Shown here one piece after another: positions 23,501-26,500 of a stretch of DNA of 64,000 nt. Source of the stretch: Escherichia coli (GTDB lineage Bacteria > Pseudomonadota > Gammaproteobacteria > Enterobacterales > Enterobacteriaceae); the NCBI RefSeq assembly GCF_003019035.1, contig NZ_CP027447.1. One strand, written 5' to 3'. A program made the position numbers. Each line of letters opens with the position of its first letter. The first letter of the stretch is position 1.

Positions 23501-26500
23501 ATCCTTGAGGACGGAAGAATTGAATCCCGCGATCCGTTTTATCGTGAAGATTTCACGGTACTCTACCGCTGGCCTCACGCTTTACTTAGCAATGCCCCGG
23601 CTCCACAAACGACGAATATTTTCAGCCATCTTCTTTTACCCTCCACGTCATCGTTGTTAATTTGGTTTCCTTGTCTATTCCTGGTTTGTGGATGGTTATA
23701 TCTCTGGAAGCGCAGGCCGCAATTTACGCCGGTAGATGTGATTGAAACCGATGTCATTCCGCCAGATTACACGCCCGGCATGTTACGTCTCGATGCGAAG
23801 CTGGTTTACGATGATAAAGGTTTTTGTGCCGATATCGTAAATCTGATTGTGAAAGGAAAAATTCATCTGGAAGATCAGTATGATAAGAACCAGCAAATCC
23901 TGATTCGTGTTAATGAAGGCGCGACCAGAAATAATGCGGTATTACTGCCCGCAGAGCAGTTATTACTGGAAGCGTTATTTCGTAAAGGCGATAAGGTCGT
24001 TCTTACGGGGAGACGCAACATAGTCTTACGCAGGGCATTTTTACGGATGCAGAAATTTTATCTGCCGCGTAAAAAGTCTTCGTTTTATCGACCAGATGCG
24101 TTTTTGCAATGGGGTGGACTGGCAATATTGGCGGTCATTCTCTACGGTAACCTGAGTCCCGTAGGTTGGGCAGGAATGAGTCTGGTAGGCGATATGTTTA
24201 TTATGATCTGCTGGATTATTCCTTTTTTATTTTGTTCCCTTGAGCTTTTGTTTGCCCGCGATGATGACAAGCCTTGCGTTAATCGTGTAATCATCACTTT
24301 GTTTTTACCGCTGATTTGTTCAGGCGTGGCCTTTTACTCTCTCTATATCAATGTCGGAGATGTATTCTTTTACTGGTATATGCCAGCGGGTTATTTTAGC
24401 GCTGTTTTCCTGACCGGCTATCTCACTGGCATGGGGTATATTTTTCTGCCAAAGTTTACCCAAACTGGGCAGCAACGTTATGCCCACGGTGAAGCTATCG
24501 TTAACTATCTTGCGCGTAAAGAGGCAGCAACACACAGTGGGCGTCGGCGGAAAGGGGAAACACGGAAACTGGATTACGCGTTGCTAGGTTGGGCAGTCTC
24601 GGCAAACCTTGGCAGAGAATGGGCAGCACGTATCACGCCGTCACTCACAGCGGCTGTTCGCGCCCCGGAAATTGCCCGTAGTGGCGTTTTATTCTCATTA
24701 CAGACGCACCTGAGTTGCGGGGCCTATACCAGTTTGTTGGGGCGGAGCTATTCCGGTGGTGGTTCTGGCGCTGGTGGCGGAGGCGGTAGTGGCTGGTAAT
24801 CAAGCTGATATTAATCGAAACAAGCTTTAACCATAAAGATAGTGTAGTATGTTGCGCCTCAAAGCCAGGCCGATAAACGTCGAGTCGTTTACTTAAGGCC
24901 TGAAGAGTTCAAACAGACTTTACTATCAGTGAGTCAGATGTAAGTTCTGACTCACTGTTGCACAAAAGCATATCAGACGCCTGGGAAGGCGACACCAAAA
25001 GGAAGCTCTATGAGCGAAAAGCTACAGAAAGTGCTGGCGCGTGCCGGCCACGGCTCTCGCCGTGAAATCGAATCTATTATTGAAGCCGGTCGTGTGAGTG
25101 TTGATGGCAAAATTGCTAAACTCGGCGATCGCGTTGAAGTTACCCCTGGATTGAAAATCCGTATCGATGGTCACCTGATTTCGGTACGTGAGTCCGCTGA
25201 ACAAATTTGTCGCGTTCTGGCCTATTACAAACCGGAAGGTGAGTTGTGTACCCGTAACGATCCGGAAGGACGTCCAACGGTGTTTGACCGTCTGCCAAAA
25301 CTGCGTGGCGCACGCTGGATTGCCGTGGGTCGCCTGGACGTTAATACCTGTGGTCTGCTGCTGTTCACCACCGATGGTGAACTGGCAAACCGTTTAATGC
25401 ACCCAAGCCGTGAAGTTGAACGTGAATATGCCGTGCGTGTATTTGGTCAGGTTGACGACGCGAAACTGCGTGATTTGAGTCGTGGCGTGCAGTTGGAAGA
25501 TGGTCCGGCAGCCTTTAAAACCATCAAGTTCAGCGGCGGCGAAGGGATCAACCAGTGGTACAACGTTACTCTGACCGAAGGCCGTAACCGTGAAGTTCGT
25601 CGTCTTTGGGAAGCGGTTGGTGTGCAGGTGAGCCGCCTGATCCGTGTTCGTTACGGTGATATCCCACTGCCAAAAGGTCTGCCACGCGGTGGCTGGACGG
25701 AGCTGGACCTCGCCCAGACTAACTATCTGCGCGAACTGGTGGAGCTACCGCCAGAAACCAGCTCTAAAGTCGCTGTAGAAAAAGACCGTCGTCGCATGAA
25801 GGCGAATCAGATTCGTCGTGCGGTGAAACGTCACAGTCAGGTGAGCGGCGGTCGTCGTTCTGGCGGACGTAATAATAACGGTTAATTTAAGTTAAGTATA
25901 AAATAAAGGCCCTGCGGGGCCTTTTCTTCATTTGAAGTATGATAAATAGTCGCAGTATTTTAATTTAATTTCATACTTGCTTATGAATATTACCAGGAAA
26001 TAGCCACATTACTATTTAATTATCTGAGATAAACTCAACGTCAAGAGGTGGGTTATGATTAGATATAGTGGAATATTTCTATCGCTGTTAATGCTTTCAG
26101 GTTGTGCAACCGAAGCATTGAAGAATGAACAAGCTGAAACTGTTATTACTGCGGGTAACAAGGCGGTTGCGGCGAATGCAAGTTTCTTTAAACAATACTA
26201 TGCTTCTCGTGAAAATTTCCTTGTTAATTTTTATGCGACTAATCCGGATTGTGCATTGCGACCTGATTATGAAACGATTATGGAAAATAATACTAATAAA
26301 GAGTCCTTATGTATGCAATCAGAGAAAGGGGACAAAACATCGTATAAAGACGTTACTAAAGTTCAATTGGCAACAACAGAAAAACAAAAGCTACTGGCTT
26401 CACTTGAGGTCGTTAACAGTATGAGCTCCTATGTGGAGTTGTTGACGGTGGATATGGATGTTGACGATAGTAAACAAATTATATTACTTAATCAGGCGCT

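Follow-up and report, generated by a model that had tools for sequence, protein, structure and literature searches.

A Conserved Hairpin Upstream of rluB in Escherichia coli as Part of the Arm of an Integrative Island Relic

The region between yciQ and rluB of Escherichia coli holds a perfect hairpin, here designated P2, which has been analyzed in a stretch of 64,000 nucleotides from contig NZ_CP027447.1 (assembly GCF_003019035.1), referred to below as the window. Sequence comparison with enterobacterial relatives identifies P2 as the conserved stem-loop of the integrase-proximal arm of a tyrosine-recombinase island family, of which the window carries a fossil, and GACGCCTGGGAAGGCG, about 10 nt upstream of the rluB Shine-Dalgarno sequence, as the attachment core of these islands. 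The overall reading adopted here, with a probability of roughly one half, is that a hairpin from an island arm now lies in the rluB leader and may act there as a leaky terminator or insulator; that mechanism taken by itself is put forward more tentatively, at somewhat less than even odds. P2 is a real, selected structure of an ordinary kind, and the greater interest lies in its context. The leader of rluB appears to be supplied by the island end, together with a conserved RNA hairpin for which Rfam has no matching family.

Structure and Conservation of the Hairpin

P2 spans positions 24927-24957 on the plus strand, with stem arms at 24927-24938 and 24946-24957 (CAGTGAGTCAGA and TCTGACTCACTG) and a 7-nt loop at 24939-24945 (TGTAAGT). 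The original prediction had described it as an 11-bp stem of the form cagtgagtcag-N9-ctgactcactg at 24917-24947; the inverted repeat and its perfect pairing are present, but it lies 10 nt further to the right and its arms extend by one more pair, giving a perfect stem of 12 bp with 6 G-C pairs. The distances to the flanking genes are close to those initially estimated, with 52 nt from the stem to the rluB ATG at 25010 (about 60 had been given) and 127 nt from the yciQ stop at 24799 to the stem (about 120 had been given). Folded in isolation, P2 has a free energy of -20.1 kcal/mol and a z-score of -5.4, and none of 200 shuffles was equally good, while stacking on a neighboring hairpin is not conserved. 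No match to the exact P2 pattern is expected according to 100 shuffles of the window, and perfect hairpins of at least 12 bp are expected about 0.1 times per shuffled window as against six in the real one, which makes such hairpins a class of real features in the window.

The decisive argument against chance is the covariation of P2 across genera. Diversity was sampled by a metagenome scan with a conserved rluB-adjacent DNA pattern, which returned 120 loci with 85 distinct upstream variants; the pattern required the core and the Shine-Dalgarno region, whose invariance is thus partly by construction, and the hairpin lies outside it. Pairing statistics were obtained from an ordinary MAFFT alignment of the 46 distinct hairpin-bearing variants (type A, described below). 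The covariation check that had been proposed for enterobacterial relatives gave a clear result, with pairing conserved in 88.1% of stem cells as against 28-46% when the partners are slid. Cells with double changes numbered 81, as against 10-27 slid and 28 shuffled, with 0 of 500 shuffles reaching 81, although related sequences share ancestry and such cell counts overstate the number of independent events. The covariation score was 0.321, as against at most 0.134 in the controls, and one stem pair occurs as UA, CG, GC, UG and AU with zero unpaired cells. RNAalifold recovers the P2 stem de novo, and all 46 variants fold, at -7 to -21 kcal/mol and with loops of 3-15 nt. That P2 might be a palindrome arisen by chance or one copy among those of a dispersed repeat is favored by its small size only and has a negligible probability, given the zero matches expected from shuffling and the cross-genus covariation; its occurrence at one place per genome in 3976 genomes rules out the dispersed repeats, whether repetitive extragenic palindromes (REP) and bacterial interspersed mosaic elements (BIME), enterobacterial repetitive intergenic consensus (ERIC) sequences or miniature inverted-repeat transposable elements (MITE).

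The strand on which P2 folds can be read from its mismatches. In the core stem, G.U cells outnumber A.C cells by 63 to 5 (10 to 2 when counted by column and pair type), which indicates folding on the rluB-sense strand. Together with the variable loop, this asymmetry points to a single-stranded fold, most simply RNA, and argues against a double-stranded protein site; a palindromic operator for a dimeric regulator was rejected on the same two observations, the spacer varying over 3-15 nt. Within Escherichia, relatives show three different stem substitutions, all of them transitions that produce G.U on the plus strand and A.C on the other. The C-to-U stem allele was found in all four non-identical E. 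coli genomes sampled from the 1343 that are not identical over the 61-nt query. P2 thus displays the compensatory, strand-specific base pairing by which a structured leader RNA is recognized.

Two of the roles first suggested for the hairpin fit these data poorly. A free-standing small RNA receives no support, as there is no mapped 3' end and no Rfam 15 family matches P2; only noise overlaps at E up to 10 were obtained, a snoRNA model reaching 17 bits where its gathering score is 49. An RNase III site is likewise unlikely. The enzyme normally needs a near-continuous duplex of about 20 bp or more, around twice the 12 bp of P2.

The Island Arm and Its Attachment Core

Upstream of rluB, relatives carry three unrelated sequence types (A, B and C), which diverge exactly at the base before GACGCC. 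The core GACGCCTGGGAAGGCG occupies positions 24976-24991 of the window, 18 nt downstream of P2, and is recognized by direct repeats around islands. It is duplicated at island ends and single at empty sites, with one copy in the window and one at an empty site from the metagenome sample (L002). In RNA, the core forms a small leader hairpin, P3, on the plus strand (24978-24991, CGCC-UGGGAA-GGCG). In E. coli BA92, yciQ and rluB are separated by an intact island of 13,130 bp and 41.7% GC whose genes encode an integrase, a helicase, a baseplate-like protein and a recombinase, and GACGCCTGGGAAGGCG stands at both of its ends as a direct repeat of 16 bp (L135, positions 19884 and 33014). To the left of the left repeat, the K-12-type arm with P2 is unchanged and is now 13 kb from rluB; the arm left of the right repeat comes from the new island, and the hairpin version that it carries now abuts rluB. 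A tandem arrangement is also seen in two Klebsiella loci (L079 and L093) from the K. pneumoniae complex, where a type C element of 3.75 kb is bounded by 15-bp direct repeats 3,753 bp apart (1118 and 4871 in L079). The attachment site before rluB is evidently one that still receives islands in E. coli and Klebsiella.

A remnant of the island's recombinase is retained next to the arm. About 70 nt upstream of P2, a minus-strand block encodes (M)IRGRTYYTNF(R/K)(L/M)N(D/A)S in nearly all type A loci. In Citrobacter freundii (L037) this block opens an intact open reading frame of 545 amino acids that matches the Pfam family Phage_integrase (PF00589, E = 6e-12), and the adjacent integrase gene is annotated as well in BA92. 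Other type A loci retain only some 11-30 recognizably homologous codons; the window keeps the first 16 (24811-24858, minus strand, reading GATYYTIFMVKACFD*). From presence and absence and from breakpoints, the whole island relic is delimited to 22883-24975, comprising yciQ (22910-24799, plus strand), the integrase remnant and the arm. It lies between rnm/yciV (21384-22265) and yciO (22226-22882) on one side and rluB (25010-25885) on the other. The third-codon-position GC content of yciQ is 0.46, as against 0.49-0.53 in its neighbors, and its product is a DUF2207 protein.

The layout of the arm resembles an attachment site of the lambda type. Of the four GTGTGAC copies present along the 13 kb of the BA92 island, the two arms hold three. 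Between the integrase remnant and P2 lies a variable hairpin, P1 (24866-24902, plus strand), whose fold was computed and which is not part of the consensus structure; where relatives have an intact island, GTGTGAC repeats occupy the P1 interval and are candidates for arm-type integrase sites. The consensus of integration host factor (IHF), WATCARNNNNTTR, is matched at 9 of 9 positions by AAATCAGTGAGTTAG in the BA92 arm and at 8 of 9 by TATCAGTGAGTCA in the window, both putative sites. The core repeats, the GTGTGAC copies and the IHF match together suggest a lambda-type organization with P2 between the arm sites and the core.

This layout raises the alternative that P2 acts only in DNA, as an accessory site for recombination whose 5' arm would be bent by IHF or an excisionase, as in lambda attP, with no RNA function. 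P2 does lie 18-49 nt from the core, between the GTGTGAC repeats and the core, and the conserved positions C25, A26, G31, T32, T33 and A34 of the alignment (A4) coincide with consensus positions of the motif. An IHF site, however, requires no complementary 3' arm, and double changes fall at the 'N' positions of the motif, with four pairs showing 3-5 pair types each. The excess of G.U over A.C cells is not predicted by a double-stranded site, the loop length is variable, and P2 stays intact in fossils without an integrase. Matches of 8 out of 9 are moreover common in A/T-rich DNA. A purely DNA-level role is therefore considered unlikely, albeit the foremost of the alternatives.

Distribution Across Genomes and Native Empty Sites

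Searches with blastn (word size 11) located P2 in 3976 of 5426 complete E. coli genomes, and in some 940 others the match is confined to the final 55 nt up to and into rluB. About 20% of complete E. coli genomes, strain FDAARGOS_1058 among them, have neither yciQ nor P2. There, yciO is followed directly by a different spacer of 66 nt with its own terminator-like hairpin, and the shared sequence resumes at GACGCCTG(G/T)GAAGGCGACACC. These breakpoints indicate that P2 has been gained or lost together with the 2.1-kb segment at 22883-24975 that holds yciQ. Beyond E. coli, taxa with a P2-type hairpin, as assigned by exact look-up of the linked RluB proteins, comprise E. whittamii, Klebsiella michiganensis, K. 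huaxiensis, the K. pneumoniae complex, Raoultella, Citrobacter freundii, Leclercia, Silvania and Scandinavium. Scanning contigs with YciQ yielded two Escherichia loci only, since close YciQ relatives are rare; the nearest homologues outside Escherichia, syntenic and with 51-57% identity, belong to the Klebsiella oxytoca group and to two metagenome/SRA contigs, and a hairpin of different sequence sits beside them at the P2 position. In K. huaxiensis (L007) the yciQ-rluB spacer is 1.3 kb long and contains a small minus-strand open reading frame and, at 5161-5192, an imperfect palindrome (CCCCAGTCACTTACT / AGTAAGCTCCTGGGG), which we take to resemble the ERIC core.

The association with yciQ in E. 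coli could suggest that P2 stabilizes or terminates the 3' end of the yciQ mRNA. The hairpin begins 127 nt after the yciQ stop, its presence and absence in E. coli are shared with those of yciQ, and the annotated yciVOQ operon ends at yciQ. Nevertheless, it is also found in K. pneumoniae, Raoultella, Citrobacter, Leclercia and others without a nearby yciQ, at loci whose upstream genes are often divergent, and its spacing is fixed to the core and rluB rather than to yciQ. It has neither a U-tract nor a mapped 3' end, and transcription is already terminated by Rho within yciQ (MG1655 position 1325258; Adams 2021). This role is very improbable.

Type B corresponds to the native empty site and has been found in some E. 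coli, in E. albertii and in Lelliottia. Its spacer (L002, 1436-1500; L080, L090, L117 and others) contains TATACTACGCGGCC, conserved across genera directly after the yciO stop, which is a candidate for a promoter consisting of a -10 element plus a GC-rich discriminator. A hairpin occupies the equivalent place in 10 of 10 distinct native spacers, ending 12-14 nt before the core; its sequence differs between genera and covaries, and in Lelliottia it takes the form of a textbook A6-stem-U6 terminator. Type C elements, exemplified by L079 (1133-4870), have a split or frameshifted integrase at the left end, away from rluB (Phage_integrase, E = 1.5e-5, just below the Pfam cutoff), a gene for a YecR-like lipoprotein, and at the right end a predicted canonical promoter, TTACAA-16-TATAAT, directed outward toward rluB. 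In type C arms a hairpin ends 5-8 nt before the core. The native leader and the leaders supplied by both kinds of island thus share a hairpin just before the core, and the finding of identical RluB proteins with type A and type C leaders indicates that these are alleles within species.

These distributions bear on the idea, present in the original prediction, of an element dedicated to rluB, in which P2 would be a cis-regulator bound by a protein, for instance RluB itself in an autoregulation based on mimicry of helix 93 of 23S rRNA, or cleaved by RNase III. The leader position, 52 nt from the ATG, the growth-phase dependence of RluB abundance and a stem base AAC...GUU that recalls helix 93 (GAAC...GUUC, with U2604/U2605) would be in its favor. 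The mimicry was nonetheless rejected, given that the similarity does not extend beyond the AAC/GUU base, that many variants including E. coli have AUC instead of AAC there, and that blastn of the leader against E. coli 23S rRNA gave nothing near 2588-2606. The stem is short for RNase III, and P2 belongs to the island arm, persisting when displaced 3.75-13 kb from rluB. Specific regulation of rluB is likewise difficult to reconcile with its expression without P2 in the 940 or so E. coli genomes, as well as in every genome of type B or type C. A dedicated regulator is accordingly held to be improbable. Control by CsrA through GGA motifs in the loop of the core hairpin and in the Shine-Dalgarno sequence, 17 nt apart, was also considered and is contradicted by published data, in which rluB had no crosslinking and immunoprecipitation (CLIP) peak and was unchanged (Potts 2017).

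Transcription of the rluB Leader and Proposed Role of P2

Insertion of the island would cut rluB off from the upstream rnm-yciO genes. In many relatives the upstream genes, whether the integrase or others, are divergent, and in Kluyvera a strong terminator stands immediately before the integrase fossil. With rluB separated from rnm-yciO and the upstream genes divergent or terminated, a transcript reaching rluB would have to start inside the arm module. The mRNA of rluB is cleaved by MazF at an ACA located '49 nt' before the start (Sauert et al., PMC5001579 Table 1), and the best match to this site is the ACA at 24962-24964 on the plus strand, 4 nt 3' of the P2 stem. Indirect support also comes from the intergenic regions of E. 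coli and E. whittamii, which share 95.7% identity where third codon positions in the neighboring genes reach 76-85%. Taken with the sense-strand fold and the arrangement of the upstream genes, these data agree with the initial placement of P2 in what functions as the rluB 5' leader. Further downstream, the RNAalifold consensus includes the Shine-Dalgarno sequence AGGAAG and a 4-bp hairpin, P4 (GCUC-UAU-GAGC), together at 25000-25015 on the plus strand. P4 (25005-25015) has the rluB start codon in and next to its loop and is invariant in 24 of 24 leaders folded, in a stretch partly fixed by the search pattern.

The best conserved candidate for the rluB -10 element is TAGTAT at 24845-24850, which lies inside the integrase remnant, is followed by a GC-rich discriminator and may represent the rluB promoter. 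Reading this upstream box as simply a sigma-70 promoter was rejected, given that TAnnAT corresponds to Thr-Tyr/Trp-Tyr codons of the minus-strand integrase, which still leaves room for a promoter. Two other promoters were discarded, one with a -35 element TTTACA before the stem and the -10 element in the loop, whose sequences are not conserved, and a sigma-28 promoter, GCCGATAA (24868-24875), whose spacing is wrong and which is absent in B2 strains. On the opposite strand, a Rho-dependent antisense site has been mapped in rluB at MG1655 1326939, which corresponds to window position 25105 (Adams 2021). The minus strand also carries a promoter-like TCAACA-17-AATAAT (25104-25076) within rluB codons 23-32, which points antisense through the rluB start and the attachment core toward the integrase side.

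In the proposed mechanism, P2 would be transcribed on the rluB-sense strand from within the arm and would fold as RNA, as the island's equivalent of the terminator-like hairpin that stands between yciO and the core at native sites. This equivalence is suggested by the relatives, where 39 of 46 variants have at least four U in the 10 nt from the last two stem columns, typically UUUUU, and most have an A-rich 5' flank complementary to the U-tract. P2 would then be a leaky intrinsic terminator or insulator that throttles transcription from the island end before it crosses the core into rluB, and in the intact island the throttled transcript would be antisense to the 5' region of the integrase. 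In Escherichia the U-tract would have decayed (CUGUUGCAC) while the stem became perfect, and P2 is now probably no more than a very stable stem in the leader, one that would keep the folding of the core hairpin and the ribosome-binding site independent of upstream sequence and might block ribonucleases. P2 itself is most likely a decayed terminator-like stem.

Several observations weigh against this interpretation, in addition to the shared ancestry that inflates the covariation counts. As had been noted at the outset, there is no U-tract on either strand of the window (the plus-strand tail 3' of P2 reads TTGCACAAAAGC, and UUGCACAAAA follows directly after the stem), and a scan of the window called neither a terminator nor a promoter at P2. 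Without a U-tract, termination cannot be the present role of P2 in the window. The public tables consulted list no transcription start or 3' end at P2, and the Term-seq and Rho tables for E. coli K-12 that were available as text contain no entry within MG1655 1326600-1326899 (Adams 2021), albeit low expression could hide 3' ends in Term-seq; this supports the earlier impression that P2 does not look like an intrinsic terminator, and in E. coli it is not one. In the relatives, large loops of up to 15 nt and an A-U-rich stem base predict weak termination, and a simple terminator scan calls none of their hairpins. The candidate promoter has a poor -35 element, and the conservation of TAnnAT can also be explained by the Thr-Tyr-Tyr codons on the opposite strand. 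Finally, the IHF match in the 5' arm means that a DNA-level role may coexist with the one proposed here.

A different function for the same transcript has also been considered, in which P2 would terminate a countertranscript of about 100 nt that begins within the first integrase codons, is antisense to the integrase 5' region and represses the integrase, with rluB transcribed by read-through. The -10-like TAnnAT and GC-rich discriminator are conserved at the integrase start, P2 lies roughly 70-100 nt downstream on the strand opposite to the integrase, most relatives have the U-tract, and antisense control of recombinases is a known architecture, which this arrangement resembles. On the other hand, no RNA ends have been mapped, P2 and its flanks are conserved where only 11-30 integrase codons are left and nothing remains to be regulated, and the only consensus promoter match on the integrase strand lies inside rluB. 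This alternative is doubtful, slightly more so than the DNA-level site. Similarly doubtful is a broader conjecture built upon it, according to which GACGCCTGGGAAGGCG would be an undescribed integration hotspot across Enterobacteriaceae, serving at least two unrelated families of islands that each carry a portable promoter-plus-hairpin module to take over rluB expression, with P2 as the terminator of the countertranscript. If this were true, one RNA would restrain the integrase and, by read-through, set the level of rluB, and the stability of the island would be coupled to a host ribosome-maturation gene.

Implications and Other Hairpins in the Window

The reading of P2 as an island-arm hairpin in the rluB leader leads to a reinterpretation of yciQ and the adjoining 'intergenic region' of K-12 as the relic of an integrative island. 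It also provides a case in which a host gene is kept expressed after an island has separated it from the rest of the operon. The annotated products of rnm, yciO and rluB are all RNA-related. The dyad in the rluB leader is evidently the attachment site of at least two island families, and in the searchable literature no description was found of this dyad as an attachment site or of the yciQ region as a relic. A practical caution follows for engineers. The yciQ gene is widely used as a 'neutral' integration locus, and the promoter and leader of rluB probably reside in the arm that follows it.

The window also contains other perfect hairpins of similar size. The strongest has a stem of 13 bp and a 3-nt loop and lies within the 5' coding sequence of yciQ (22988-23016, GAGATCCCTTCTT-atg-AAGAAGGGATCTC). 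Four more, of 12-13 bp, are located at 10085-10112, 38183-38219, 43220-43249 and 58682-58717, of which the first (TCAAAAGCCTCCG-acc-GGAGGCTTTTGA, with TTATT after it) resembles an intrinsic terminator acting in both directions.

Comparison with Known Systems

The closest parallel is found in attP/attR arms of the lambda type. In both, the integrase gene abuts the island arm, a core of 15-16 bp is duplicated at both ends, a short motif (here GTGTGAC) is repeated in both arms and the stretch from the arm sites to the core holds a match to the IHF consensus. The rluB site has likewise been seen empty, occupied and tandemly occupied, states that were compared as sequences only. Unlike in lambda, the arm contains a hairpin that is strand-specific and covaries in the manner of RNA, for which lambda-type arms have no described counterpart, and the target is not a tRNA gene but a small dyad in the 5' leader of a protein gene, some 10 nt from the ribosome-binding site.

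Class 1 integrons, where the promoter Pc is located inside intI1 and reads across attI, offer a second parallel. Here too, the island recombinase is divergent from the expressed gene, the best candidate for the rluB promoter is situated in the first recombinase codons and the transcript would cross the attachment site. The integrase is nonetheless a phage-type protein of 545 amino acids rather than an IntI, the promoter is a candidate, and the downstream gene is a fixed host gene rather than a cassette. An attC-like site was also rejected, since attC ends follow the consensus RYYYAAC ... GTTRRRY and the flanks of P2, ACAGAAC ... GTTTTTC or GTTGCAC, do not conform to it.

With intrinsic terminators and attenuators, P2 shares the A-rich 5' flank, the stem of 10-16 bp and the UUUUU tail present in most relatives, and at native empty sites a canonical terminator takes the corresponding position. 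It differs in the missing U-tract of the window copy, in its long and variable loops and A-U-rich stem base, in having no E. coli Term-seq 3' end and in not being called by a simple scan in any variant. A last comparison can be drawn with islands that restore the end of a host gene, such as those carrying tRNA 3' ends in attP. In that case a gene 3' end is restored, whereas at rluB it is the 5' regulatory region that is replaced, by a sequence that is analogous rather than identical. In both systems the island brings a substitute for the part that it displaces, which here would consist of a source of transcripts and a core-adjacent hairpin, so that the host gene stays expressed.

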